Of a stretch of DNA of 64,000 nucleotides, positions 32,201 to 53,555 are shown one piece after another. How positions within the stretch are numbered: position 1 is the first letter of the stretch; each line of letters begins with the position of its first letter. The stretch is from a virus: positions 14,170-78,169 of the IMG/VR virus record IMGVR_UViG_3300049846_001316. One strand, given 5' to 3'. The notes under the pieces were generated by a model. That model searched no databases and was not told where the DNA came from. It saw only the letters and a list, made by a program, of their open reading frames with translations. The translations under genes and the position numbers were made by a program.

Positions 32201-34633
32201 ACCGTCCGCAAGACCCTCACCACGTGGCGCACCCGCATCGGGGCCAACGTCAACGCCACCTTCCCCATCAGCGCATCATGGGCGGGCAAGTACATCACCG
32301 ACCCGGCCGGGAAGCTCGCCCCCCTCACCAAGATTGTCTCGGTCAACGTGAGCGCCGGAACGGTGCTGCTCGACCGCGAGCCGCTCGTCAGCGGCGTCAT
32401 TGGATCGTTGAGCATCTTCGGGCAGCCGGGGACCCTCACCACCGAATACTGCGACTTCTACGACAGCCTCAGTGGGATCGCCGGTCCGAACCCGGACGCT
32501 GGTGGCCTCATGGGTGACAACATCAACTTCACCGACGCCACCTACCTCGACTGGGACTCCTGGCACGGCGTCGACTTCGGAGCCTGCAAGAACATCACGC
32601 TTCGGAACATGTCGCTCTGGTACCTGTGGGGAGACTTCTTCTTCTTCAAGCCGTACGACCCCTACGGTCAGTCGCAGCACCAGAGCATGAAGGGTTCGCA
32701 GGCGCAGCCGGACACCATCAACATCCATCAGGTGTACGGCCGCGGGTGCGGCCGTCACGCGTTTACGTGGCAGGCCGGAGTCCGCCTCGACGTGGACAGC
32801 GGCGACTACTCCGGCATCGCGCACTGGTTCATCGACAACGAGCCACTCCAGAACGCTCGGATGCTCAAGTGCCGCTGGGCGAACTGCGCGGCCGGTGGTT
32901 CCGGGAGCCCGTACCACTACCTCTCGAAGGGTCCCGGCTCGGTCGTCAACGGCGACGTGCCCCGGCTCATCACTGGAGTCCAGATCACGCAGGGTTCGCC
33001 CATCGCCAAGATCGTCACCGGCGAAGGAACCGGTTGGGAGAAGGATCTCAACGGCACGTTCATCTACGGCAACTGGTTCGACGGTTCGTACCAGGGCTGC
33101 CAGCTCTCGCTTCCGAGCGACACCGGACTCGCCAACTGGACGTACCTGTTGCAGTGGCGCAACTTCGATGAGATCGAGATGTCGCAGAACGCTGACTGGG
33201 GGGCCGCACCGGGGACCACCAAGACCGTCTCCATGCTCATGAAGGGCACCGGTCAGATCCACGATCTGATGTTCGAGTACAACCGGCTCACCCAGGGTCA
33301 GTTCATCATCGACATCGACTCGCAGACGACCAAGCCGACGCAGACTTCATTCTCGAGGATCAACTTCCGGGTCACCGCGACCGCCGGCACTCCGTACGTG
33401 CAGATCACGAGCATGGACGCACGAGCGGACGGCACGAGCTACGAGCCTGATTCGACTTGGATCAATCAGGTGTTCCGTCCCTCGGTCGCCAACTACTTCC
33501 CGTCGCAGCCTGCTCCGAAGATCCTGGAGATCGGTCCGAGCCTCACGGACCCGAACCTGCCGACCAAGTTCCACATGAAGCTCGACCGCAACACGCTCAA
33601 GAGTGTGACCGGGATGTTGTGCTCGATCGCCCCGCTGTTGGAGTGGCACCGCGGGTTCACGTTCCAGTACAACTGCCAAAGTGCGACGGGCTCCTACGAC
33701 GGCGACACCGGAGCTCCCGGCCTGCCGCTGCTGCGCCTCGGGCGGGGGTGGACTGATGTACTTGTACGTGGGAACATCATCCCGTTCGTCGAGCGCACCG
33801 ACCCGGCGACTCGGAGCTACCTGCTCGGCTGGCTGAACAACTCTCGTCAGGCACGGATGTTCACCCGCGACGGCGCGCCGCCCAACCTGCCGGCCGGAAC
33901 TTCGTGGCAGGAGTACGACAACTACCTGCCGGGCGCGGCCGACAACGACCTCACGCCGAGCGGCACGATCACCGCCGCAATCACGTTCGATCAGAACCCG
34001 CACTCGAACCTGACTCCGGTCACCTACACCGTGACGCTCACCAGCTCCACCGGCGACCCGGTGGACGGGTATGTCTCGATCCTCGAAACGACGAACGCCT
34101 CGGACACCACACCGCCCGTGCTCAACAACGCTGGACAGGTCAAGTTGGTCGGCGGCGTGGCGACGTTCACGACGGCCGCACCGAAGCCTGACGGCACGTA
34201 CTACGTCAGAGTCCGCTACAACGGCGGCTGCTCCCCGCAGGATCAGCGGTACCAGTCGCCCACTGCAACGACCCTCACCGTGGGCACGGTGGCGACCAAA
34301 GAGGACACGATCACGACGGCGACGGCGAGCCCCAACCCGCCGATCGACGGCCAGCCCGCGAGCGTCGGCGCGACGGTCACCGGGATCACGAGTCAGCCCA
34401 CGGGTACCGTGCGCCTGAGCGGAACCGCGGTCGGGACTCCGGTCGACCTTGTGCTCGTCGGCGGACAGGTGTCACTCAACCGGACCTTCGACCCAGGCAC
34501 ATACACACTGCTCGCGGAGTACCTGGGGGACAATCTCCACAACCCGAGCTCGAGCACCATCACGTTCACCGTGGAGGAAGTGATCGTCGTGCAGAACGGC
34601 GAGGAGTGGACTGCCGGCAGGGTCGGGTCTTGA
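29294..34633 (+). CDS. Large tail fibre/adhesin (PKD domain, beta-rich repeats, beta-helix segments, C-terminal Ig-like domains)
   Basis: TWDFGDG PKD motif; two C-terminal Big-like domains (PTGTV.L...GTYTL.AEY.GD); Thr/Val/Gly rich. Confidence 0.7.
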   Translation: MGEIFVVPTSINDPTDPTGLGMVAGNGGWIFGGEPKYFPGHANYVVSEVPLPDDTANNTRVGSYTTKPVGGSALTWTFNYGVLNLPSSAPPTLLTPTIVVTWDFGDGSPPETGLSVTHTFPEDNYYIVTMYVEHVGKADSNPRLASKPTHMIFKSAITYAITADTGITVLDQSFTKMVLPNISDAFLWWFCYGWDPANPLVQHNIDGFISSRSGVSPSDRNTVRLRGPGYFYAFEYALRWGLAGPYAFTDEYGNTISGMTVTNGTTVAPDWVEPFCVKNLDFDFYGSMVVQQDSRIKGAPRIPLRGQFTRFGNLIDQIDLKTRTGDAAILLPAWVDRKLSATIADRPIIGSTGTPIKGDFTKGDRIVRNVDTPLRAGWVNTLIAVASAFGLPDGTYVSEIGPNVGLGLGSSDIRLSQAYQGVTTTQLTAMIARLPYQDDLTKRNNTVLIHNNFTTPESYARNNITLVSTPGSNVLTNVSEPVHDGWLELDIAGGGLGGLSTTTTLACSDVQTSLPSTITAAGGDFSNAGIPSAGRIKIATTYLDQNGNTQKSFAIIAYTGKSTSPKQFTGCTLVWGRGAFVSGAALDFIVHILEIDASNPANQKLTVSSLPVATTTASRNATIPWTAFATDQLLIERPINGLDPITTKTFVMGGSRITDVDAATRLATVAPDDDYMTVSGTWQLAVGTSTWITDISVPVDSNWLGKTVTNPNGGVTANTVVLEVDTVLNRIRVQKQPNTNVVVKNFRIGFSYGSFLSAVTRWGGATSPAIRERFQLPGTAVISSATVGAVSDATKQITLKSPKVAALTSPFRYAGFTMQVTAGSRKVKVLSLADSRPQGAMTSKWIGLRLECITAGLIPASPTDTRVVAVGPDVGLGLATDEFLIDNDPLAAGTSQGYVRVDLKQAVDVILDAAFVQKVGGVQLLTLSSPGTAPPALGYDPSTGRYDYDYAGKKLLGMKATANIASGDPTVRKTLTTWRTRIGANVNATFPISASWAGKYITDPAGKLAPLTKIVSVNVSAGTVLLDREPLVSGVIGSLSIFGQPGTLTTEYCDFYDSLSGIAGPNPDAGGLMGDNINFTDATYLDWDSWHGVDFGACKNITLRNMSLWYLWGDFFFFKPYDPYGQSQHQSMKGSQAQPDTINIHQVYGRGCGRHAFTWQAGVRLDVDSGDYSGIAHWFIDNEPLQNARMLKCRWANCAAGGSGSPYHYLSKGPGSVVNGDVPRLITGVQITQGSPIAKIVTGEGTGWEKDLNGTFIYGNWFDGSYQGCQLSLPSDTGLANWTYLLQWRNFDEIEMSQNADWGAAPGTTKTVSMLMKGTGQIHDLMFEYNRLTQGQFIIDIDSQTTKPTQTSFSRINFRVTATAGTPYVQITSMDARADGTSYEPDSTWINQVFRPSVANYFPSQPAPKILEIGPSLTDPNLPTKFHMKLDRNTLKSVTGMLCSIAPLLEWHRGFTFQYNCQSATGSYDGDTGAPGLPLLRLGRGWTDVLVRGNIIPFVERTDPATRSYLLGWLNNSRQARMFTRDGAPPNLPAGTSWQEYDNYLPGAADNDLTPSGTITAAITFDQNPHSNLTPVTYTVTLTSSTGDPVDGYVSILETTNASDTTPPVLNNAGQVKLVGGVATFTTAAPKPDGTYYVRVRYNGGCSPQDQRYQSPTATTLTVGTVATKEDTITTATASPNPPIDGQPASVGATVTGITSQPTGTVRLSGTAVGTPVDLVLVGGQVSLNRTFDPGTYTLLAEYLGDNLHNPSSSTITFTVEEVIVVQNGEEWTAGRVGS

Positions 34634-35621: not shown

Positions 35622-36737
35622 TCAGGCGCTCTGAGCGGCCAGATCGGTGTAGGCGTCGATCCAGTCGCTCCAACGCTGCCTCACGTCAAGCTGGGCCACG
35701 GAGACGAGCCCTTCGGCGCCGATCCGCTCCCGCTCCGCGGGGTCCGCGAGGCGCTCTAGGTGCTTTGTCCAATCTGCCGGTTTCCGAGCGAGCAGCCCGA
35801 GGCCATGCTCCCGGTGGAGCCATTCGTACTCCGGGGTGGCCTGCGCCACGAACGGGATGCCCGAGGCGGCGTACTCCATCCCCTTGATCGAGCTCTTGGC
35901 CAGGTTGAAGGGCGAGTTCGACAGCGGCACGAGTCCGATGTTGATGCCCTCGAACAACTCGGGGTACCGCTCGATGCCGCACATGGGCTTTGTGAAGACC
36001 CGCGCGCCACCCGGCAGCTTCATCGCCGCCTCGATCGAAGTGGCGGTCGGCCGGGGGTCGTGCCCTCCGTGGTAGAGACGTGCTCTCGGGTGACGAGCCA
36101 AGAACTGCTTCACCGCCCACCCGATCGTTTCGAGATCTCCGGACCGGAATCCAGTTGCTCCGACCCAGCCCAAGTGCGGCTCGCCGGCGAGCGGCTGTGG
36201 TGTCCACCGCTCCAAGTCGATGGCGTTGCGCACCACCGCGATCGGCTTGTCCGGGAACTTCTGCTGGTACCGCTCCTTCAAGTACGGAGTGCTCACTGTG
36301 ATGGCGCTTGAGGCAGCGATGTTGCGCTGATAGAACTCCCGATTCGATCTCGGGTTGTGGTGCGGGTGAGTCGCTTTCCAGGCGTAGTTCCGCGGGTCGA
36401 GTCCGGGATACCAGTCGTCGATGTCTTGGATGACGATTTGCCCGTACGCTCGAGCGCGGAGGAGCCCCTTGACTCCATCTTCCATCCATCGTTGGATGAC
36501 GATGACGTCGAACCCGTCGAACTCGTTGCCTTCCCAGTCAACGAGCACGAGTTCACCACTCGGCCGCTGGTTCACCGCACCGAACTGCCGGGTGTAGATC
36601 CCGTTCAACCGAAGTTGCCGGGACGGGAGTCCGATGCGGTACCAGCCGGCTCCGCCCAGGGTGGGGTGGCCTTCTGCGTCTCGCGTGTTGGAGTAGTCGA
36701 CGGTCGCGAAGCCGATCTTCACCGCACGAATCTCCAA
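35622..36737 (-). CDS. Glycosyltransferase, GT-B (GT4-like)
   Basis: GWYR..LP, DIDD, ITVST..L, GWVG, IGLVPL...FN.AKS.IK.MEYAA.GIP. Confidence 0.85.
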   Translation of the reverse strand: MEIRAVKIGFATVDYSNTRDAEGHPTLGGAGWYRIGLPSRQLRLNGIYTRQFGAVNQRPSGELVLVDWEGNEFDGFDVIVIQRWMEDGVKGLLRARAYGQIVIQDIDDWYPGLDPRNYAWKATHPHHNPRSNREFYQRNIAASSAITVSTPYLKERYQQKFPDKPIAVVRNAIDLERWTPQPLAGEPHLGWVGATGFRSGDLETIGWAVKQFLARHPRARLYHGGHDPRPTATSIEAAMKLPGGARVFTKPMCGIERYPELFEGINIGLVPLSNSPFNLAKSSIKGMEYAASGIPFVAQATPEYEWLHREHGLGLLARKPADWTKHLERLADPAERERIGAEGLVSVAQLDVRQRWSDWIDAYTDLAAQSA

Positions 36738-36840
36738 ACGACGAAGATCACAAGGCCGACCGCGGCGTACACGCCGAGTGAGATCATGCAGCCGTTGTAC
36801 AAGCCGCGCGCCTCACGGAGAGGGTCCTTGAGTTCGTCCA

Positions 36841-37011
36841 TCAGTACGTATGGATCTTCACGAACTTGCCGCCCATGTGCGAGCTGCCGTCCTGACAGAG
36901 GCGGACTTCACGGATCTCGCGCATCGCGGTCGGGGAGACTCCCACCATGACCTGCGCGCCGTCGTGCTCGTTGATGTCCATGAGCGCCTGGATCAACTCG
37001 TCGATGTTCAC
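36841..37011 (-). CDS. Hypothetical protein
   Basis: GTG start coupled to the upstream stop; 56 aa. Confidence 0.45.
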   Translation of the reverse strand: MNIDELIQALMDINEHDGAQVMVGVSPTAMREIREVRLCQDGSSHMGGKFVKIHTY

Positions 37012-37721
37012 CGCTTCATTCCCCCATACTTCTTGTTGAATCGAACAAGGTCGTCGTACTTGGTCTGGTGGAGCTCTGGTACCTGTTGGGCAGAGTATTC
37101 GCCCATGTGGTCGACCGGAAGTCCGGTCACGATGGCGGGCTTGGCGCCGGCGATCTCGAGTTGACGCACGAGGTCGTCGTCTCCGCACCACCACTCGAAC
37201 TGCGGGTCCACGAAGGGCACTCCGCGCGTGGTGTGCCACTCCGCGGCGAACATGAAGGCCCAGCCGCAGATCCCGTGGTTGCGGTAGGTCCCGCGCACGA
37301 GATCAGGCCCGTGGTGCACCGAGTGCGCCGACAGCGGAAGTCGGTAGTCCGGGCACACGATCCCGCGATCCGGGTCAGCTCGCAGCTCCTCTGCCAGAGG
37401 AGCGAGGAACTCCTGAGTCGGAATCGTGATGTCGTCGTTGAGGAACGCGAGATTGATCTCCTCGTCCGGGTACGACTCCAGCAGCATCGACCAGGCGAAG
37501 TTCCACATCCCGTAGAGGTCGTGATGTAGGTGCGCCGGAGGATGCCAGACTTCGAGCTTCGGGTCGCGCTCGTCCTCGGGCAGCCAATGGCGGAGGCGCT
37601 GATCGTCGGTGTCATCGAGAACGATGACGAGATCGTGCTCGTCCAGATAGCGCAGGTCCACGAGGAGTTGGCGGAACGTGTCCGGGACGAACCGAGTCGG
37701 GATGGCAGCGATTGTTTTCAC
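37008..37721 (-). CDS. Glycosyltransferase, GT-A (GT2-like)
   Basis: AIPT, VLDD, WN, FLNDD, GWAF, WWCGDDDL motifs. Confidence 0.8.
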   Translation of the reverse strand: MKTIAAIPTRFVPDTFRQLLVDLRYLDEHDLVIVLDDTDDQRLRHWLPEDERDPKLEVWHPPAHLHHDLYGMWNFAWSMLLESYPDEEINLAFLNDDITIPTQEFLAPLAEELRADPDRGIVCPDYRLPLSAHSVHHGPDLVRGTYRNHGICGWAFMFAAEWHTTRGVPFVDPQFEWWCGDDDLVRQLEIAGAKPAIVTGLPVDHMGEYSAQQVPELHQTKYDDLVRFNKKYGGMKR

Positions 37722-38176
37722 TCTTCATCCTCCCCAAACTCGGTGCCGCACCAGTCGCAGCGGTCGTGGGTCCACGAGTGGTTGCAGTGGTGGCCGCACG
37801 GACGCTTGCTCTCCGGGCACTCGTTGAGTGGGTACGTCTCGTGCGTCGGGTCTTCGGTGCAGGTGTCGCAGGACTCGGAGTCATCGCTCACCTCGTCGAT
37901 CTGGGCCGGCACCTCGTCGACCTCGGGTTCCTCCTCGATCCGAGTGCGCGAGTTCCGGTGCTCGAAGCCGTCCTCCTTCGCAGAGTTGACGATCTGCTTG
38001 GCAACGACTTCGATTGCTTCCCGGTCGGACGGGTTGAGCACGAGTCCACCCGCCATGCGGCGGGCGAGCTCGATGCTCGGAACGTGGCCCTGCGCGGCGC
38101 ACTCGCAGATGTCCGATCCGCACGAGTGGTGATTCAGCGACCCGCAGTGGCCGCAGATGTACAGGTTCTTCTTCAC
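37718..38176 (-). CDS. Cys/His-rich hypothetical protein (multiple Zn-binding motifs)
   Basis: CGHC, CECA, CDTC, CGHHCNH, CDWC. Confidence 0.5.
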   Translation of the reverse strand: MKKNLYICGHCGSLNHHSCGSDICECAAQGHVPSIELARRMAGGLVLNPSDREAIEVVAKQIVNSAKEDGFEHRNSRTRIEEEPEVDEVPAQIDEVSDDSESCDTCTEDPTHETYPLNECPESKRPCGHHCNHSWTHDRCDWCGTEFGEDEE

Positions 38177-38445
38177 GCTTCCTCGCACTCCCCTTCCAGG
38201 TTCTCCTCGTCCTCGCAGGTGCAGATGCTCTGGTTGTGAGTCAAGCACCACTGGAACGGGTAGGCCATCTTCTTCTCGGGTTCGGGGAGCACGCGCAGGC
38301 GCATGATCTCGACGGGATTCTCCTCGTCGGTCAGCATGTCCTCGATGTCACCCCAGTCGTTCTCGCCGTAGCAGGCGAAGAACGTGTACTCACCGATGTC
38401 CTCGCCATCGGCGCGCATGACGATGTGGCTCGGGATCTTCCTCAT
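38173..38445 (-). CDS. Hypothetical protein
   Basis: ATG coupled to the upstream stop; acidic, C-terminal C-x2-H-x4-C-x-C. Confidence 0.45.
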   Translation of the reverse strand: MRKIPSHIVMRADGEDIGEYTFFACYGENDWGDIEDMLTDEENPVEIMRLRVLPEPEKKMAYPFQWCLTHNQSICTCEDEENLEGECEEA

Positions 38446-39218
38446 CGGTAGTACGTCCTGTCCGCGTCGCGCTCCTCGACTCCGACGAGGGGCTCGACGT
38501 GGGTGCCCACGACGTCGTGCCGCACCCACGTCTGGCCGAATCCGAACTCCTGCGCGTCGGCCTGGAAGCACGGATCGTCGGTCGAGCCGGACTGCAAGTC
38601 CCAACGCCACCGCATCTTCCGGAACACGTCTCGACGCACCATCATGAACCCGGCGGTCGTCCAGTGCTCCTGGAGATCCATGTCCCGGTACTCCGGGTTC
38701 GGGACCTTCGGCCCGGAGTGCGCGTAGTTCGGCACGTGCCCGCAGACGATCCCGTGGTCGACCTCGAGGAGTCGGTTCACCGAGTCGGCCGGCACGCTGG
38801 TGTCGGTGTCGATGAACAGGATGTGCGAGATGCTGAAGTCCGACTGCGCGTACTCGTGGGCGAGGTTGCGTCCGGCGCAGATGCGGTGCAGCCGACTCCG
38901 GCCGTCGAACTCCTGGATCAGATCATCGACCCGGAACTGCCACGTCACCACGTCCCACGCGGGGTCGGCCGCAGCCTTGACCTCGCACAGACGATCTTCG
39001 AGCGCGTCGTACGGCTCCATGCCGCGGCCGTCGACCTCGGCGGCGAGGAAGTGGGTCAGGCGGATGCCCGCGTCCTCGGCACGCATCAGGCGTTCCTCGG
39101 CGCGGTCGAGCCACGCCAGCTCACCGACGCCGTTGCACTTCCACGGCGCGCACGTGGTCGCAACGAGCACGTGCGGTGTCTCAGGCGGTGGCGTTCGTAC
39201 GATGTCCACGAGGGTCAT
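38442..39218 (-). CDS. Glycosyltransferase, GT-A-like
   Basis: GRN, HILFIDTD (DxD), GFMMVRRDVF, DDPCF, WV..DV...H. Confidence 0.75.
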   Translation of the reverse strand: MTLVDIVRTPPPETPHVLVATTCAPWKCNGVGELAWLDRAEERLMRAEDAGIRLTHFLAAEVDGRGMEPYDALEDRLCEVKAAADPAWDVVTWQFRVDDLIQEFDGRSRLHRICAGRNLAHEYAQSDFSISHILFIDTDTSVPADSVNRLLEVDHGIVCGHVPNYAHSGPKVPNPEYRDMDLQEHWTTAGFMMVRRDVFRKMRWRWDLQSGSTDDPCFQADAQEFGFGQTWVRHDVVGTHVEPLVGVEERDADRTYYR

Positions 39219-39229
39219 GAGGGTCCTTC

Positions 39230-39841
39230 CTAGGTCCAGAGATTGAACTCGGGGTTGGCTTGGTTTCTATCGAGCCACCGGAGCAGCTTGGGGAGATTCG
39301 TGTCGGGGCCGAAGCCAAGGTAGGTGCCGTCCGCGGTCGCGCACCCCAGCGAGTCGGCGTACTTGAGGCGGCTGAACGAGTTGACCCGGCCCATGTGGAC
39401 CGGCATCCCCCGCCGCACGCCCTCGGTGATCAGTGCCCGAGCATCGGGACTGAGCTTCCATTCGGTCGAGCCGCCAATGAAGAGGGTGTGCGCCTCGTCC
39501 CACGGGATCGACTCGATGGTGGCACCGTCTTGCAGAACGATCGCGCGTGGCCACGCGTGGAGGTAGTCGCACCAGTCCCGCCACGACGCGAGTGTCGCTT
39601 CCCAGTCGTACAGGACGTCAGGGACAGCCACGAAGAGACAGCCCGCCATGAACGGGCGATACGCCTCGAGAGCAGAAAGATACGCGTCCTCGTCGAAGCC
39701 CGCGTACGCACCGTTGTCGAGTCCCCACTTCCACCCGTGGCGGACCTTGTTACGGGTCGCAGGGGTGACGAACGCACCGAGTGTGCCTTCGGTGATGAGG
39801 CCCTTGACCACATCGTTATGCGGAGTCACGAGGTACAGCAC
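39230..39841 (-). CDS. DpdA-like / TGT-fold deazapurine DNA transglycosylase
   Basis: WGLDNGAY, VAVPDV, VLQDG, LFIGGS, VHMGRVN, ADGT; coupled to QueF-like and VUT genes. Confidence 0.65.
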   Translation of the reverse strand: MLYLVTPHNDVVKGLITEGTLGAFVTPATRNKVRHGWKWGLDNGAYAGFDEDAYLSALEAYRPFMAGCLFVAVPDVLYDWEATLASWRDWCDYLHAWPRAIVLQDGATIESIPWDEAHTLFIGGSTEWKLSPDARALITEGVRRGMPVHMGRVNSFSRLKYADSLGCATADGTYLGFGPDTNLPKLLRWLDRNQANPEFNLWT

Positions 39842-40094
39842 ACTCGATCCCCATGCCGGCGGTTGACCACTCGGTCGTGATGTCCGCGTGCGGGTAGTAG
39901 TTGTGGAGCTCGGCGGTGAGTCGCTCGTGGGTGATCCTGCGAGCAGCAAACTCGTCGAGGTGGGTGCGGAGATCATGGAACTCAATCTCTCCGTCGTCCG
40001 GGTTGTACGTGAGGGTGACCGTGCCGTAGTCCGTCTCGTCTCGGAAGGGGCACAGGTGAACGATGGGTGCGGTCACACGGACTTGCAGGTTCAT
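39816..40094 (-). CDS. QueF-like T-fold protein (QueF-L type)
   Basis: LCP....DYGTV and THE motifs in 92 aa; the NADPH-binding ExKSxKxY motif is degenerate (EFHDLRTH). Confidence 0.65.
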   Translation of the reverse strand: MNLQVRVTAPIVHLCPFRDETDYGTVTLTYNPDDGEIEFHDLRTHLDEFAARRITHERLTAELHNYYPHADITTEWSTAGMGIECAVPRDSA

Positions 40095-40630
40095 GCGACT
40101 GCCCGCCGGCGAAGTCGGAACGGAGCGATGACGATGAGCGCCGGGAGGATCATGAGGGTCTTGAGCCAGAACTGGCCCCACAGAAAGTCGAGCGAGTGGA
40201 AGGCGAGCCAGAGGAACACCACCGAGTCGACCAGGCTCCCGACCGTGTTCGAGAGCACCACGCCCCACGTCCACTTGCCTCGCTCCGCGAGCGGCGTGTA
40301 CACCGCCCAGTCGAGTCCTTCCCCGAGCAGGAACGCGCACCCCGACGCCCACGCCAGAGACGGGGCAACGAGGTAGGACAGCGCGGCGCCGACCACGATG
40401 GCAGCGGCGATCTTCCACTTGCCGAGGGCGAGCTGGGCGCCGTCCCGCAGACTGAACGACAGACCGACGAACAGGACCCCACTCGGGGCCGTCCACGGGC
40501 CGATCGTGACGGTGTGCGGACCGCCGGGGAACGGCACGGTGCCCCAGTGCTGGATGGCGTAGTTGGCGAGGAAGATGCACCCGATGAATCCGGCGAGGCA
40601 GATCCACCCGAGCTTGCGGTTGAGGGTCAT
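40091..40630 (-). CDS. VUT family (YhhQ-like) preQ0/preQ1 transporter
   Basis: Multi-TM; LAN, G..F.LRD, SN.VG..VDS.VFL.LAF signature. Confidence 0.8.
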   Translation of the reverse strand: MTLNRKLGWICLAGFIGCIFLANYAIQHWGTVPFPGGPHTVTIGPWTAPSGVLFVGLSFSLRDGAQLALGKWKIAAAIVVGAALSYLVAPSLAWASGCAFLLGEGLDWAVYTPLAERGKWTWGVVLSNTVGSLVDSVVFLWLAFHSLDFLWGQFWLKTLMILPALIVIAPFRLRRRAVA

Positions 40631-40637
40631 GGTTCTC

Positions 40638-41219
40638 CTATTGCTTCCAGGCGAGGGCCTGCACGTCCCCGCGGTGAAGTGTGTTGATCTCGTGACGAGC
40701 GAAGTTGTAGAGGAGCGTGTCCTCGAGTGCCTTGGGGTCGACGTTGGCGTAGTACTCCACTCCGTGCGGAACGAACGTCTCTGATCCCCGTGGGCCGGGG
40801 TCATCCGTGAGGAACTTGTCCGTGTACTCCTCGGGCTCCATGTTGTGCCCGTCCACGGCTGAGTGCGGAGCCCGCGGGTCGCACGCCGCGGTCATGATCG
40901 CGATGCCGTCGACCTTGAGGAACTTCGCCATGTTGGCGACGATGTTGCGCCACTCGGGAGTGTGCTCGAAGACCTCGAGGCACAGCACCACGTCGAACGT
41001 GAGATCGCGCGCCGTCGTCCAAGTGGCAGCGTTGCCCACGTGGTCGACTCCGGGACCGGGCACGATGTCGACGCCCATGTACTCGGCGTCGGGGAACAGA
41101 TCCCGGACACCGCCGTTGATGTCGAGGGAACCGAACTCGAGCACGCTGAGTCCCTTCCACGACTTGAGGTTGCACCGCTTCACAGCGGCCTCCACGAACC
41201 ATCGACACTCCGCGTGCAT
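40638..41219 (-). CDS. Class I SAM-dependent methyltransferase
   Basis: VLEFGS.DING, Y.GVD...GPGVD, FDVVLC.EVFEH. Confidence 0.85.
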   Translation of the reverse strand: MHAECRWFVEAAVKRCNLKSWKGLSVLEFGSLDINGGVRDLFPDAEYMGVDIVPGPGVDHVGNAATWTTARDLTFDVVLCLEVFEHTPEWRNIVANMAKFLKVDGIAIMTAACDPRAPHSAVDGHNMEPEEYTDKFLTDDPGPRGSETFVPHGVEYYANVDPKALEDTLLYNFARHEINTLHRGDVQALAWKQ

Positions 41220-42367
41220 CAGGACTCCTTCTCGAGCTTGGTGATTGGCTTCACCTTGAGGGTTGGGTTCCCGAACCCCTGCCGGATGGAGGCACGGAGT
41301 TCGTTCTTCTGATCGAGCGACAGTTCGTCGCCCTTGAGCAAGTCGTCGATGTCGCCCAGGTTCAGCTTGCCGTAACGCGACATGATCTCAGGGCCGACGA
41401 TCTCCGAGACGGTGAGCGGGTCGACGTTGCGACGGGAAGAGGCGGTTACCGTGATCCGGTTCGACTCGCCCTCGAGTTCCATCAGCCCTTCCTCCTCCAT
41501 CACCTTGAGGAGGTGGGTGCGGATCTCGTCGGCCGCAGTCTCGGCAGCCTTCTTCACGTACTCCAGTTCGGAGAGGCGGTCCGCCATCTGCTCCGGCGGC
41601 AGCGACAGGACGCCGCCCATGTTCTCCACCATGCGGACCGAGCGGCACACGTGGTTGCGGACGCAGTACCGGCAGTTCGGGCCGAGCTTCTCTTCCTTGC
41701 CGTCCGAGGCGAGGATGCGGTCGAGCGTGCGCTTGAGATAGCTCCACGTCTCCAGCAGTTCGTCGCGGGTGTAACTGATCGAGATGGGCTCCCACCGCAG
41801 CAGATCGAACGTGATCCAGATGCGGGGCGCGTCCGGGTACAGGATCGCTGCCGCGAGTCCGTACATGCGCGCCTGGATGCGATGCTTGAGATCGCCGGGC
41901 TGCATCGGCGCCATGTACGTCTTGTAGTCGACGACCTCGATGTTGCCGTTGTCGAGTCGGTCGCACCGGTCGAAGATGTAGTTGAACGGGACCTCAAGCC
42001 CGGACGTGCTCTTGACCGGGAAGCTCAACTTCTGCTCGGCCGCGAGGACCGTGCGGCCCTCCCAGTCCTGTCGGACGTACCACTTCTTCAGGAGGTCGAC
42101 GCCCTCCTGCCGGCGTCCGTCGTGGGAGAAGAGCTTGTCGTACTCCTCGTGCCAGAACCCCTCCATCACCGAGAACGGAGTCTGGGGGTCAGTCTTGTAG
42201 AGCTCACCGACGACCCAACGCTCGAGCACGGAGTGGCATCCGGTGCCGAAGTTGGCGGCTTCGCCGGAGTCTCGGGGGGGCCGGTCACCGATGTACTTGG
42301 CGGCGTATCCGGCGGGGCAATCCTCGAAGTCTTGGATCGCGGTCGCGGAGAGAGAACGTGGCTTCAA
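41219..42367 (-). CDS. PD-(D/E)XK (RecB/Cas4-like) exonuclease
   Basis: LSAT...CP, G..CH..LE, DR.D, VVDYKT, Q...Y, C.YC....C. Confidence 0.85.
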   Translation of the reverse strand: MKPRSLSATAIQDFEDCPAGYAAKYIGDRPPRDSGEAANFGTGCHSVLERWVVGELYKTDPQTPFSVMEGFWHEEYDKLFSHDGRRQEGVDLLKKWYVRQDWEGRTVLAAEQKLSFPVKSTSGLEVPFNYIFDRCDRLDNGNIEVVDYKTYMAPMQPGDLKHRIQARMYGLAAAILYPDAPRIWITFDLLRWEPISISYTRDELLETWSYLKRTLDRILASDGKEEKLGPNCRYCVRNHVCRSVRMVENMGGVLSLPPEQMADRLSELEYVKKAAETAADEIRTHLLKVMEEEGLMELEGESNRITVTASSRRNVDPLTVSEIVGPEIMSRYGKLNLGDIDDLLKGDELSLDQKNELRASIRQGFGNPTLKVKPITKLEKES

Positions 42368-42639: not shown

Positions 42640-43371
42640 TCATGCTCCGTTTTCCGTGAAGAAGGTTGGGCGTGCCAACCGGGACCGTGCTGCATCAGCG
42701 TAGCCGGAATCGACCTCGATGCCAATGCCTCTTCGACCCAAGTTCATCGCCGCGACGACGGTGGAACCGGACCCGGCGAAGGGGTCCACGACCACTTCGC
42801 CCCGCTCTGTGCTCATCTCCACGAGGCGCTCGATCAGGGCGACCGGCTTCTCGGTGGGATGGATGTGCTGCTTGCTCCCGAGCTTGTCGACGTGGATGAT
42901 GGCGGAGCGGCGGTATGGGACTTCGCGGCGCCCCTTCTTGAAATACATGATCAGCTCGTGGCCGCAGCCCCAGTTGCCGTCGAGGTCGCCCATGCCGGGG
43001 ATGCCCTTGTCCCACACCAACAGCATCTTGTACAAGAAGCCGTAGTCTTGCATCAGGGGGACGAGGGCCGACTCCCACTCGTGGAGGCAGTCCCATTTGG
43101 TGAAGACGTAGAGGTCGCACTGCTCCCGAGTCTTCGGCAGGAGCAGTTGCATGGCCTCCCCGAACAGCGCCAGGGCGCCGGCCATGTCGCCGTCGTTCTC
43201 GATCTCCTTCACGAACCGCTTGCCCTGCGGAGTCGTGGCTCGGAAGCTCTTGAACGCCACGCCGTAGGGCGGGTCCGTGATGATGCACGGAATGTTGTCA
43301 GGGAGGGTCGGGATCAGATCCCGGCAATCCCCGTTGAGGATCTCTGAGCGACCCACGTTGACGCGCTTCAC
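42640..43371 (-). CDS. DNA amino-methyltransferase (N6-A/N4-C, beta class)
   Basis: TDPPYG, HPTEKP, VDPFAGSGS. Confidence 0.92.
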   Translation of the reverse strand: MKRVNVGRSEILNGDCRDLIPTLPDNIPCIITDPPYGVAFKSFRATTPQGKRFVKEIENDGDMAGALALFGEAMQLLLPKTREQCDLYVFTKWDCLHEWESALVPLMQDYGFLYKMLLVWDKGIPGMGDLDGNWGCGHELIMYFKKGRREVPYRRSAIIHVDKLGSKQHIHPTEKPVALIERLVEMSTERGEVVVDPFAGSGSTVVAAMNLGRRGIGIEVDSGYADAARSRLARPTFFTENGA

Positions 43372-43553
43372 GCCCACGCCCACTCGATCCCCTTCCAGAT
43401 GATGCCGCCGATCAGCACCGCCAGCAGGATCGCGAGCAGCGCGATGACGACCATCGTGGAGTTGACGGCGATCTTCATTGCCGTGGACATCGGCTTCTTC
43501 GGCTCGGGGACGACCATCTCGTACGTCTCCCGGTCGAATGGGTTATCGGACAT
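43368..43553 (-). CDS. Small membrane protein
   Basis: Single long hydrophobic helix. Confidence 0.55.
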   Translation of the reverse strand: MSDNPFDRETYEMVVPEPKKPMSTAMKIAVNSTMVVIALLAILLAVLIGGIIWKGIEWAWA

Positions 43554-44148: not shown

Positions 44149-44697
44149 TTATCCGTAGGCGCGACAGCCCCATCCGGACAGACCGTACTTGGCATACACC
44201 CGCTCCGCAACGATGATCTGCTGCTCACGAGTGGCGTGACCGGCGAAGTCAGCGAACTCGCGTCCGCCGAAGCCGTTCCACGTGGTGTTGGCGAAGCCGA
44301 GCCCACCGCTGAAAGTGCGCCCGACCATCCCCCAGTCTCCACCCGTCTCGCAGCGAGCGATGCCGTCCCAGTTCACGCCGCCGGAACGACGCGGAGTTGG
44401 AGTGCTCTGTGCTCGAGCCGCTCGAGCTCGCTCCTGGGCGGCTCGAGCCGCTTGCACTTCGACTTCGTGCTGCTTCTGAGCGGCGAGCCACAACTGGCGG
44501 TTGTGCTCGTCGATCTCGTGGGTGCGAGCGATGACCGCCGCCTGCACGATGGGGGACTTGCTCATCCCCTCCATCGAGACGGTCGGCTGGTTCATCGTCA
44601 CCGGGGCCTCGGCTGACGCATCGGTCGCAACGACGGAACCCACGGCTCCGACGACCGAGACGACAGCGAGGAACGCAACGCCCATGATTCGAGTCAC
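44149..44697 (-). CDS. Secreted resuscitation-promoting factor (Rpf)-like lytic transglycosylase
   Basis: Signal peptide, coiled linker, WDGIARCETGGDW...GGLGF...TW...ATREQQI.VAE....G..GW. Confidence 0.88.
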   Translation of the reverse strand: MTRIMGVAFLAVVSVVGAVGSVVATDASAEAPVTMNQPTVSMEGMSKSPIVQAAVIARTHEIDEHNRQLWLAAQKQHEVEVQAARAAQERARAARAQSTPTPRRSGGVNWDGIARCETGGDWGMVGRTFSGGLGFANTTWNGFGGREFADFAGHATREQQIIVAERVYAKYGLSGWGCRAYG

Positions 44698-45008
44698 TTC
44701 TTCTTGCCTTCGTTCGGGGACAGGTCCTCGACCAGCTGCTTGAGCGAGTCGGCCGACCCCGTTGCGATGCAACGGAGTCCTTCCTTCGGGACGACGCTCC
44801 TGACGCAGAGCATCGCCCGAAGACCTCGGGTCGTTCCGACGCTGGCGACCACGAACTCGTGGTTGTGGTTGCCCTGCTTCTCGACGGCCTCCATGATCAT
44901 CTTGGCGTCCGCCACGTCGTCGCAGAACGCGATCACGTCGTGGTTGAACGTGTCGAAGCAGGCGATGTACGCCTTCCGGCCGCGACGAATGAGTGTGTAG
45001 TCGGTCAT
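44694..45008 (-). CDS. Hypothetical protein
   Basis: ORF coupled to the Rpf gene. Confidence 0.5.
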   Translation of the reverse strand: MTDYTLIRRGRKAYIACFDTFNHDVIAFCDDVADAKMIMEAVEKQGNHNHEFVVASVGTTRGLRAMLCVRSVVPKEGLRCIATGSADSLKQLVEDLSPNEGKKK

Positions 45009-52537: not shown

Positions 52538-53401
52538 TCATACCGCCTTGTTGGCCGCAGCCCGAAGTCCCGCCGTGGTGATTCCCACGTACGTCTCGGT
52601 CTGCGAGATGCTCGCGTGGCCGAGCAACTCCTGAACCGCACGGATGTCGTGCGTCTTCGCGTACACCTCGGTGGCGAACGTCGCCCTGAGGTCGTGGCTG
52701 GTGACGTGGCGCTCGACACCGGCCCGGACTCCCAGCTCCGTGATCAGGTCACGGGCAGTCCGGTTCTTGATGCCGACGAGCGGCGCGTCCATGCGGACCC
52801 ACGCGTCCGCACCGATGGCGCGGTCGAGGATCTTCGCCGCCACGTCGCTCACGGGCACGGTGCGCTCACGGGCGCCCTTCCCGAGGACCCATAGCGTCCG
52901 ATCGGCCGCGTTGTAGTGCGCAGGCGTGACGGCGACGGCCTCGCCCACACGGAGCCCACAGAGCCCGCAGAGGGCGACAAGAGCACGGTGCCGCGGATTG
53001 CCCGCCACCGCGACCATGGTGAGCACGTCACCGATCCCGCCCGGTAGCGGGTGAGGGATCGCTCTTCCCGGTGTCGGACCGTTGTACGCGGTGAGCATCG
53101 GGTAGGTCGGGTCGAGGTACTTCCACACGGTGCGGAACGAACCCAGTCGGCGCAGCACGGTCTTGGGCTTCCACTGGGTGCGCATCTCGTTGAGGTACGC
53201 CGCCACGATCGGTTCCATCGCCCGAGCGTCCCGAAGTTCGAGTTCGTCTGGTGCTGGAGCTCCAGCCGGCAGGCTCGAAATCCAGTCTCGGAGTCCTCGC
53301 AGGTCGCCGTCGTAGGCGCGGAGTGTCGTCTCGGGAGCACCGAGCATGGCGCGGTGCTCACAGAACTCGTCGATCATCTCGTCGAACTCGGTGATGTTCA
53401 T
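52538..53401 (-). CDS. Tyrosine recombinase (integrase/XerC-like)
   Basis: GLRVGE, GKG, HDLR.TFAT, LLGH...T..Y catalytic residues. Confidence 0.92.
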   Translation of the reverse strand: MNITEFDEMIDEFCEHRAMLGAPETTLRAYDGDLRGLRDWISSLPAGAPAPDELELRDARAMEPIVAAYLNEMRTQWKPKTVLRRLGSFRTVWKYLDPTYPMLTAYNGPTPGRAIPHPLPGGIGDVLTMVAVAGNPRHRALVALCGLCGLRVGEAVAVTPAHYNAADRTLWVLGKGARERTVPVSDVAAKILDRAIGADAWVRMDAPLVGIKNRTARDLITELGVRAGVERHVTSHDLRATFATEVYAKTHDIRAVQELLGHASISQTETYVGITTAGLRAAANKAV

Positions 53402-53555
53402 TCGTCGTCCTTCCCGAACAGGATCAGACCGAGTGTGATCACGATGGCGGCGGTGGAGTACCAACGCCACGTGTTGTGCTGGTGTGGTGCGAGCACGTCG
53501 GTGAGCAAGTCACAGACGCAGATCGCAGCCGTGACGATGGCAGCGGCGATGTACT

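Follow-up and report, generated by a model that had tools for sequence, protein, structure and literature searches.

Introduction

Phages such as Escherichia phage CAjan, Enterobacteria phage 9g and Mycobacterium phage Rosebush carry DpdA-based systems for the 7-deazaguanine modification of their DNA (PMC6884629, PMC7544227). CAjan can do without the transporter YhhQ, since it synthesizes preQ0 itself (PMC7544227), and uptake through YhhQ has been suggested for phages that encode DpdA only, the occurrence of YhhQ being uncorrelated with any phage group (Hutinet et al., 2019; PMC6884629). Here, we analyse a 64,000-nucleotide stretch of viral DNA (the window), corresponding to bases 14170-78169 of the 78,169-bp IMG/VR record IMGVR_UViG_3300049846_001316, for which CheckV estimates a completeness of 100%. 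At positions 35622-41219 of the window, a run of minus-strand genes combines a YhhQ-family transporter, a QueF-family protein and a small DpdA-like transglycosylase (mini-DpdA) with an S-adenosylmethionine (SAM)-dependent methyltransferase (MTase) and three glycosyltransferases (GTs). On balance, this run is probably best explained as two independent modules that have become interleaved, namely a mobile salvage cassette and a glycan module acting on an acceptor other than DNA.

Eight deazaguanine derivatives are known in DNA, none of which is glycosylated, and the preQ1 methylase DpdM is a DUF3109 protein with a Cys-rich metal motif, CxxxCxxCC (PMC10516641). Pathways that glycosylate DNA have been described in clusters combining a C5-methyltransferase, a 5mYOX/TET enzyme and a GT (bioRxiv 10.1101/2023.12.21.572611) and for glycosylated 5-hydroxycytosine (PMC13326640), while virion glycosylation gene sets are attributed to Che8 and Rita of cluster F1 (PMC11256854, citing Freeman et al., 2023). 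An initial annotation of the run had proposed that its MTase and GTs elaborate the inserted base into a new hypermodified deazaguanine, with glycosylation of the virion by genes that are only neighbours as the alternative.

In the scheme that we favour, uptake of preQ0 or preQ1 by the cell, whether infected or lysogenic, would be through YhhQ, mini-DpdA would exchange guanine in the phage DNA for the deazaguanine, and the QueF-L-like protein would convert the nitrile, preferentially to the amidine (dG+, archaeosine) on DNA-bound preQ0; DNA modified in this way would likely be protected from restriction. The MTase and the three GTs would build a methylated oligosaccharide, the acceptor of which is most likely to be a component of the virion or of the cell envelope. 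The cassette would have landed at the junction between the MTase gene and that of the first GT, giving the look of a single pathway.

Two modules probably nested in one gene run

GC3-guided calling of open reading frames (ORFs), combined with family searches in Pfam, PHROG and NCBIfam, yielded the following minus-strand order: RecB-like exonuclease, class-I SAM MTase, YhhQ/Vut_1 transporter, QueF-family protein, mini-DpdA, a GT of the GT-A fold (GT-A1), two Cys-rich ORFs, a second GT-A-type enzyme (GT-A2), a small ORF and a GT-B enzyme (Table 1). No gap between adjacent genes exceeds about 100 nt, and some of the genes overlap. All of the ORFs named in the initial annotation were recovered on this strand, at or close to their described positions and with the same tight packing.

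Single-sequence scans of IMG/VR returned no locus for GT-A1 and three for GT-A2, and an alignment-based scan was required. About 20 true GT-A1/GT-A2 loci were kept, while most of the 80 loci from the scan (L096-L169) were left out as generic partial GT-A matches of 25-30% identity; every protein of the window was then compared with the GT-module loci by tblastn. GT-A1 and GT-A2 occur together in L090-L092, L094, L095, L175, L176, L178 and L180. An MTase homologue lies directly upstream of GT-A1 in L175-L178, the three genes being contiguous in L175, L176 and L178 and the MTase-GT-A1 pair in the short L177, and it lies between GT-A1 and GT-A2 in L094. GT-B homologues accompany GT-A1 in L093, L094 and L171, so that all four module genes are found in L094, a 51-kb record with direct terminal repeats (DTR) and a CheckV completeness of 67% that is probably a complete phage genome.

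Four of these loci carry an in-frame fusion of GT-A1 to GT-A2, a continuous ORF of 432-476 codons (L175:8833-10233, L176:10001-11428, L178:748-2169 and L180:12-1307). The contigs with the fusion have 72-74% GC and a Burkholderiales-like chromosomal context, one of them being a Rubrivivax metagenome-assembled genome (MAG), and in L176 a 1021-residue Glyco_trans_1_2 protein precedes MTase-GT-A1-GT-A2. Elsewhere, the module stands among collagen-like fibre genes and a capsid gene (L094), directly before an HNH-terminase-portal series (L093) or together with two sugar-nucleotide epimerase/dehydratases (L171), and in phage LittleE the capsid and head-tail connector genes flank the GT cluster (gp15-21).

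None of the approximately 20 GT-module loci contains mini-DpdA, YhhQ or the QueF-like gene, and the mini-DpdA profile found no match in 10 whole GT-module records, which include the 51-kb DTR genome, a 148-kb record that is 92% complete and a 5.2-Mb MAG. The converse search gave the same picture. The surroundings of mini-DpdA were sampled in 83 loci (80 from IMG/VR together with those of phages Sonali, Majeke and Aoka), each extending 10 kb to either side, and homologues of GT-B, GT-A1, GT-A2, the MTase or the Cys-rich ORFs were present in 0/83. Aoka, Majeke and ReqiPine5 are examples of phages that have the cassette but lack the GTs. The GT-A1 profile matched none of 20 complete DpdA records, and among 48 whole records only two gave matches to it, which were weak and partial (13-23 bits) and about 18 kb away. 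Among the top 25 Pfam families of the 147 ORFs just downstream of mini-DpdA there is no GT; DNA methylases, portals and primases are present.

The cassette occupies exactly the MTase/GT-A1 junction, which is closed in the other loci, and insertion of one mobile module into another looks like the simplest history. Separate occurrence of the modules, in the roughly 20 GT loci and 10 whole records on the one side and the 83 DpdA loci on the other, does not support the proposed elaboration of the base by the MTase and three GTs. At the genomic level, the GT homologues occur independently of dpdA. The description of the GTs and MTase as mere neighbours, the alternative offered in the initial annotation, is the better reading. 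A sugar-hypermodified deazaguanine is therefore probably an artefact of phage mosaicism, with two nested mobile modules. The evidence for mosaicism is unusually clean, comprising an exact junction, fusion proteins elsewhere and zero co-occurrence, and it cautions against assigning guilt by adjacency.

A single pathway, giving a methylated or oligo-glycosylated 7-deazaguanine in DNA through the action of the MTase and the three GTs before or after insertion of the base, appears very improbable. It would fit the interleaving of co-oriented, tightly packed genes in a single operon and a QueF-like protein that lacks the NADPH motif and so may follow another chemistry, and glycosylation of DNA bases by phage enzymes of the GT-A and GT-B types is known (bioRxiv 10.1101/2023.12.21.572611). 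Possible routes to such a base are N-glycosylation of the preQ1 amine or formation of an amidine between the QueF-L thioimide and an amino-sugar. On the other hand, the modules co-occur in no genome but this one among the loci and records searched, and the MTase/GT-A1 adjacency and GT-A1-GT-A2 fusion are kept without DpdA, also in bacterial chromosomal contexts. In addition, a hydroxyl that could serve as a handle is missing from preQ0, preQ1 and G+, the MTase falls outside DUF3109/DpdM and the nearest folds to GT-A1 are protein and collagen glycosyltransferases, a TET-associated DNA GT appearing only at rank 34 among viral models (BFVD). We give equally little credence to a functional insertion, in which a sugar, perhaps methylated, would be joined to the deazaguanine in the DNA at its 7-substituent, either by a GT or by the QueF-L-like enzyme; if true, it would provide the first glycosylated 7-deazaguanine in DNA, made wholly from a salvaged precursor.

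Glycosylation of a DNA pyrimidine by the GT module was considered separately and rejected, as searches of the complete genome at E <= 1 gave neither ThyS (PF00303) nor TET/JBP (PF12851). Without a hydroxymethylase or a TET/JBP dioxygenase, the routes known to yield a pyrimidine that can be glycosylated are missing.

The mini-DpdA protein

At least 3030 proteins (E <= 1e-5), each of about 200 residues and without a Pfam domain, make up the family of mini-DpdA, which is itself 40-43% identical (tblastn) to Sonali gp81, Aoka gp40 and Majeke gp54, which are annotated by SEA-PHAGES as 'DpdA-like tRNA-guanine transglycosylase'. An AlphaFold2 (AF2) model, obtained with 44 homologues in the alignment, has a predicted local distance difference test score (pLDDT) of 93.8 and displays a compact beta/alpha barrel ending at residue 195. 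In a comparison with 48,161 chains using VIA-align, ranks 1-3 were taken by members of the tRNA-guanine transglycosylase (TGT) superfamily, namely Cap10 (9ntn_B, Z 14.1), arcTGT (1iq8, Z 14.0) and bTGT (3unt, Z 13.9), with QTRT2 (Z 13.0) and bacterial DpdA (7ui4, Z 12.7) scoring lower. Foldseek against the PDB was ambiguous on its own, ranking thiazole synthase/BexX over TGT at E ~1e-4. Neither phmmer nor profile hmmsearch of mini-DpdA against PDB sequences retrieved a TGT, and the relationship is visible only by structure and profile-profile comparison.

Alignment by hhalign of 44 mini-DpdA sequences with 33 canonical actinophage DpdA sequences (the Sonali gp87 family, about 290 residues) gave a probability of 96.4% (E 1.2e-9, 129 columns); with Sonali gp87 as a lone sequence the value was only 60%, and it was the profile that raised it. 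The alignment pairs DNG, PDV, GG and H, which are invariant in mini-DpdA, with DSG, LDV, GG and H, likewise invariant in canonical DpdA, D42-N43-G corresponding to D37-S38-G39 and P74-D75 to L72-D73. A further invariant residue, D171, lies in a GxxxxD-G-T motif that resembles 'GIDMFD' of TGT, although towards its end the hhalign alignment is shifted by 3 residues. TGTs have catalytic aspartates of the Asp102 type ('DSGG') and of the Asp280 type (the nucleophile; Z. mobilis numbering), and D171 may be the counterpart of the latter. The canonical actinophage DpdA relatives likewise carry no precomputed Pfam domain. The proposed TGT/DpdA nature of this ORF is thus upheld by a TIM barrel with TGTs at the first three ranks and by the profile comparison, and mini-DpdA may be regarded as a stripped-down TGT barrel, presumed to exchange guanine for 7-deazaguanine.

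Arthrobacter phage Sonali (loci L001 and L050) has a mini-DpdA gene (gp81) as well as a canonical one, which lies at a distance of 3 kb and precedes QueC, QueD, QueE and FolE (genes 87-91). Coexistence of both transglycosylase types is therefore possible, perhaps with different substrates or sequence targets.

Two DNA methylases are encoded in addition to the cassette, a C5-cytosine enzyme upstream of the window and an N6/N4 enzyme in the leftward arm (Table 1), so that as many as three kinds of DNA modification may be combined in this phage.

Probable precursor salvage and the QueF-like protein

The whole 78,169-bp genome, searched with Pfam models and by tblastn with Sonali proteins, contains no QueC, PTPS/QueD, GTP cyclohydrolase I/FolE, radical-SAM/QueE or canonical TGT. 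The lack of the genes folE, queD, queE and queC noted earlier for the window accordingly extends to the complete genome. The transporter has about five hydrophobic segments and falls under the NCBIfam cut-offs of TIGR00697 (4.8e-7, 29.8 vs 50.95 bits) and PRK11212 (26.3 vs 252); judged by its sequence, it is a divergent, shortened (179 residues) member of the Vut_1 family.

Among the 83 loci, the gene directly upstream of mini-DpdA is YhhQ in 55 and QueC, QueE or QueD in eight, and the two kinds of gene are never upstream of it together (0/83; Fisher p=8e-5). Of the available evidence for YhhQ as the supplier of the substrate, this 'import it or make it' alternation is the strongest. A QueF-like gene stands between YhhQ and mini-DpdA in 8/83 loci. 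With a transporter, a QueF-family protein and a DpdA barrel and no genes for preQ0 synthesis, the cassette agrees with the earlier suggestion that this phage scavenges the precursor through its own transporter, and it is probably a three-gene kit that imports a queuosine precursor and swaps it into phage DNA. A family of more than 3000 Pfam-less mini-DpdA proteins, preceded by YhhQ or by QueC/D/E and never by both, makes the long-suggested salvage-only route directly testable.

The QueF-like protein scores below the trusted cut-offs of both TIGR03139 (29.2 vs 86.9 bits) and PF14489 (Table 1). In an alignment of eight family members C15, D22, H56 and E57 are invariant, and the catalytic residues align with Cys55 and His96-Glu97 of B. 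subtilis QueF. The motif of NADPH-type QueF enzymes is E(S/L)K(S/A)hK(L/Y)(Y/F/W) (PMC10516641); the corresponding segment reads ELHSLRxY in the family and EFHDLRTH in the window copy, both Lys residues being replaced, by His and Arg, and does not conform to it. Compared with the PDB, the family profile found archaeosine synthase QueF-L (5jyx) as its best match (E 2.1e-7, profile positions 8-102 over residues 4-98 of 109), while NADPH QueFs scored worse, at 2.6e-5 for the bimodular and 4.5e-3 for the unimodular form. Membership of the QueF family, as suspected for this ORF, is supported by the catalytic residues, with QueF-L as the nearest match of the profile.

According to Cui et al. (2023), no phage QueF aligned with QueF-L and the phage QueFs examined were all NADPH-type reductases (PMC10516641). 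The family described here, on the basis of its sequences, may be the first of QueF-L type in phages; it is small, nearer to archaeal QueF-L than to NADPH QueF, and was not found by earlier surveys of phages. From the same comparison we lean towards dG+ as the product, with reduction to preQ1 as the main alternative.

The glycosyltransferases and the methyltransferase

Only 48 relatives of GT-A1 were found among 5.8 billion proteins. Its AF2 model (pLDDT 94.5) displays a GT-A fold with an invariant DxD (D137/D139), and Foldseek returned at least 500 GT-A matches in the PDB at E <= 1e-3, led by the human collagen galactosyltransferase COLGALT1 (4.5e-11) and followed by the GT domain of LH3; the wall-teichoic-acid enzymes TarP, which is prophage-encoded, and RmlT are among the lower matches. 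GT-A2 matches the C-terminal part of phrog_22332, a family of 408-residue MTase-GT fusions, and gave weak tblastn matches to LittleE gp17 and Gordonia phage Sixama gp91. Family phrog_22332 represents the LittleE gp17-type fusion of an MTase to a GT in cluster J mycobacteriophages; one half is matched by the MTase of the window and the other by GT-A2. GT-B is about 31% identical to gp165 of Arthrobacter phage Atuin, and its matches to Glyco_transf_4 and Glyco_trans_1_4 are under the cut-offs. The set MTase-GT-A1-GT-A2(-GT-B) appears to represent an uncharacterized glycan pathway common to phages and Burkholderiales chromosomes.

Two assignments linking this part of the run to deazaguanine chemistry were rejected. 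The Cys-rich ORFs are not DpdM-like, having no DUF3109 match at E <= 0.01, and no homologue of them was found in any fetched DpdA or GT-module locus. The MTase, which travels with the GTs and contains no DUF3109 domain (Methyltransf_11/12/23 only), is not a candidate DNA or preQ1 methylase.

Upstream of the window, the genome encodes a protein of 439 residues with four blocks of GXY collagen repeats (Table 1). GXY genes are weakly enriched near GT loci (3/20 vs 2/80, p=0.05), with p=0.17 once a duplicate is left out. Taken together with the collagen-GT folds matched by GT-A1 and the collagen-like fibres of L094, this protein may point to glycosylation of a fibre.

Possible targets of the two modules

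Several observations weigh against the assignment of the cassette to DNA and of the glycan module to a separate acceptor. The structural margin of mini-DpdA is slight, given that unrelated TIM barrels reach Z 13-13.7 (pyruvate kinase 13.7) compared with about 14 for TGTs, and its top match, Cap10, conjugates a deazaguanine to protein rather than DNA. The Pfam TGT model (PF01702) finds no match at E <= 0.01 in the protein or at E <= 1 genome-wide, and the Zn subdomain is missing, with three Cys only (C68, C90 and C167) and no CxCxxC in 203 residues. To our knowledge, no member of this family of about 200 residues has been reported to modify DNA. All of the genes of the run are co-oriented and translationally packed, and are for this reason expected to be co-expressed. 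The nearest homologues of mini-DpdA (51-57% identity) and of GT-A1 (50-62%, contigs of up to 74 kb), encoded on Logan, NCBI or ENA contigs, are not part of the co-occurrence sample. As regards the acceptor, the virion is an attractive candidate, both by analogy and from where the genes lie in relatives; however, the capsid and tail tube proteins have no Ser/Thr-rich C-terminal tails, the Ser plus Thr fraction of the last 60 residues being 0.08 in the major capsid protein and 0.07 in the tail tube protein. Glycosylated capsid or tail-tube subunits of mycobacteriophages reportedly bear such a Ser/Thr-rich C-terminal extension, as Freeman et al. are said to have described in 2023. Finally, the DNA of the DpdA-only mycobacteriophage Orion was unmodified (PMC6884629).

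The missing tails fit the possibility that the GT/MTase module serves lysogenic conversion, with a host cell-wall polymer glycosylated from the prophage so that superinfection is blocked, and not decoration of the virion. This function, which we rate as a minority possibility of perhaps one chance in a few, is in line with the resemblance of the GT-A1 fold to TarP and RmlT and with the fused GT-A1-GT-A2 and MTase in bacterial chromosomal contexts. It is also in line with the presence of a tyrosine integrase; it is less easily reconciled with the position of the module at the distal end of the early operon, away from the immunity/integrase region, and with related modules in L093, L094 and LittleE that lie within or beside virion genes. 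The integrase itself (Table 1) identifies the phage as temperate.

Orion also bears on the possibility, which we regard as rather unlikely, that the cassette is present with little or no DNA modification in nature, owing to a scarce precursor or to vestigial genes: DpdA alone left no deazaguanine in the DNA of Orion, and several phages are modified only to 0.01-0.1% (PMC6884629, PMC10516641). The three cassette ORFs are, however, intact and keep the residues that are invariant in their families, the transporter addresses the shortage of precursor that explained the Orion result, and the YhhQ/mini-DpdA pairing in 55/83 loci indicates selection.

A target other than DNA is a still slighter possibility for mini-DpdA. 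The imported deazaguanine could be placed on tRNA, so as to retune translation in host or phage, or attached to a protein, which is what Cap10 does in the type IV cyclic-oligonucleotide-based antiphage signalling system (CBASS); Cap10 is the top structural match, tRNA TGTs score equally well, and the family is devoid of the extra domains of bacterial DpdA. Nevertheless, the profile homology is to phage DpdA, a DNA-acting enzyme, and the QueC-family partner of Cap10, Cap9, is absent from the genome. Moreover, tRNA TGTs need a Zn subdomain and often PUA-type RNA-binding parts, none of which is found in this 203-residue barrel, and mini-DpdA lies near genes of DNA metabolism (RecB-like exonuclease, DNA MTase and RusA). 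Exchange of guanine in phage DNA remains the activity that we favour for mini-DpdA.

Genome setting

The genome has a GC content of 64%. Plus-strand genes up to position 34633 encode the terminase subunits TerS and TerL, the portal, a protease, a decoration protein, the major capsid and tail tube proteins, a chaperone, a 2343-residue tape measure and large tail proteins, while all genes from 35622 to about 63082 lie on the minus strand. This leftward arm encodes an AEP primase/DUF3987 protein, a CobT-like VWA protein paired with an AAA protein, the tyrosine integrase, an SNF2 helicase, a clamp, an Rpf-like transglycosylase, RusA, the N6/N4 DNA methylase and the RecB-type exonuclease. The run under study is the distal end of this replication/early operon and converges on the tail genes. 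A promoter/terminator scan of the run gave no signal beyond the shuffled background, and no match to the region was returned when 50,697 phage records were searched by megablast. A second TGT-like barrel in the place of TerS was rejected, given the end-to-end match of that protein to phrog_6902 and a genome without a Pfam TGT signal or a tblastn match to DpdA queries.

Among the other genes listed in Table 1, the CobT-type and AAA_5 proteins adjoin each other as a CobS/CobT-like pair, and the Rpf-type protein stands alone among replication genes.

Table 1. Genes of the run and other features of the genome; positions refer to the window unless marked as genome coordinates (L181)
Feature	Position	Strand	Matches and remarks
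Exonuclease (RecB-like)	41219-42367	-	Directly upstream of MTase
Class-I SAM MTase, 193 aa	40638-41219	-	Methyltransf_11 and Methyltransf_23 above gathering threshold (GA); Methyltransf_12 also matched; phrog_32762, 2.7e-26
YhhQ/Vut_1-family queuosine-precursor transporter, 179 aa	40091-40630	-	First cassette gene; Vut_1 2.3e-8, 35 bits vs GA 27.2; phrog_4899, 1.2e-32
QueF/QueF-L-family T-fold protein, 92 aa	39816-40094	-	Pfam QueF PF14489, 23 bits, under GA 27.3
Mini-DpdA, TGT-superfamily TIM barrel, 203 aa	39230-39841	-	phrog_15826, 5e-52; no Pfam match
GT-A1, GT-A-fold glycosyltransferase, 258 aa	38442-39218	-	AF2 model; no Pfam match
Small Cys-rich ORF, 89 aa	38173-38442	-	No Pfam, PHROG or NCBIfam match
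Cys-rich ORF, up to 177 aa, start uncertain	37718-38251	-	Weak DUF6788, 22 bits, under GA
GT-A2, GT-A-type glycosyltransferase, 237 aa	37008-37721	-	Sole family match phrog_22332 glycosyltransferase, 1.6e-7
Small ORF, ~69 aa, start uncertain	36841-37050	-	No family match
GT-B (GT4-like) glycosyltransferase, 371 aa	35622-36737	-	Last gene of leftward operon; Glyco_trans_1_2, 31.6 bits vs GA 25; phrog_7162 glycosyltransferase, 3.9e-28
N6/N4 DNA methylase	42640-43383	-	PF01555, 1e-28
Rpf-type transglycosylase-like protein	44149-44772	-	PF06737, 8e-19
Tyrosine integrase	52538-53470	-	Phage_integrase, 9.5e-26
CobT-type VWA protein, 840 aa	55885-58407	-	
AAA_5 (MoxR/dynein-like) ATPase, 540 aa	58708-60330	-	
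TerS, 469 aa	2911-4320	+	phrog_6902 terminase small subunit, end to end, 1.8e-54; apparently an ordinary large TerS family
C5-cytosine DNA methylase	L181:4312-5712 (genome coordinates)	+	PF00145, 2.6e-31
Collagen-repeat protein, 439 aa	L181:10935-12254 (genome coordinates, outside window)	+	Pfam Collagen, 1e-16; tail-fibre PHROGs

Comparison with known systems

The cassette resembles the systems of CAjan, 9g and Rosebush in that a TGT-superfamily DpdA stands beside deazaguanine genes with a presumed anti-restriction function, and a phage YhhQ is also part of the CAjan cluster. It differs from them in being salvage-only, lacking FolE, QueD, QueE and QueC, and in the length of its transglycosylase, which comprises 203 residues compared with about 290 in canonical phage DpdA and 413 in bacterial DpdA. 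With the DpdA-only phages (group 3 of Hutinet and coworkers, and Pantoea phage MED16; PMC8306585) it shares a DpdA without synthesis genes and reliance on a precursor from the host or another external source; in contrast to those phages, YhhQ is tied to the mini-DpdA family and is mutually exclusive with QueCDE.

The QueF-like protein has in common with QueF-L of Pyrobaculum calidifontis (5jyx) the T-fold, the Cys/Asp/His-Glu residues, a length of 92-110 residues and a Cys near the N-terminus. The scores that separate QueF-L from NADPH QueF are modest (33.9 vs 27.2 bits), and the family motif ELHSLRxY lies halfway to the NADPH motif. Likewise, a methylation step tied to a deazaguanine cluster recalls DpdM, as does the presence of two Cys-rich ORFs nearby, DpdM itself being Cys-rich; the MTase of the window is, however, a Rossmann class-I SAM enzyme, and the Cys-rich ORFs lack DUF3109 and do not travel with the cassette.

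The phage DNA glycosylation systems (the alpha- and beta-GT of T4, the TET-type clusters and the 5-hydroxycytosine pathway) also encode GT-A or GT-B enzymes near DNA-modification genes, but the present genome lacks TET/JBP and a thymidylate-synthase-type hydroxymethylase, and GT-A1 resembles collagen and protein GTs in fold rather than TarP/JGT-like DNA GTs. The virion glycosylation sets of Che8, Rita and LittleE combine several GTs with a methyltransferase as the module of the window does, and related modules lie in or beside virion operons; they differ in that the window module ends an early operon, that Ser/Thr-rich extensions are missing here and that LittleE is only a weak match in sequence (E 1e-4 to 1e-7).

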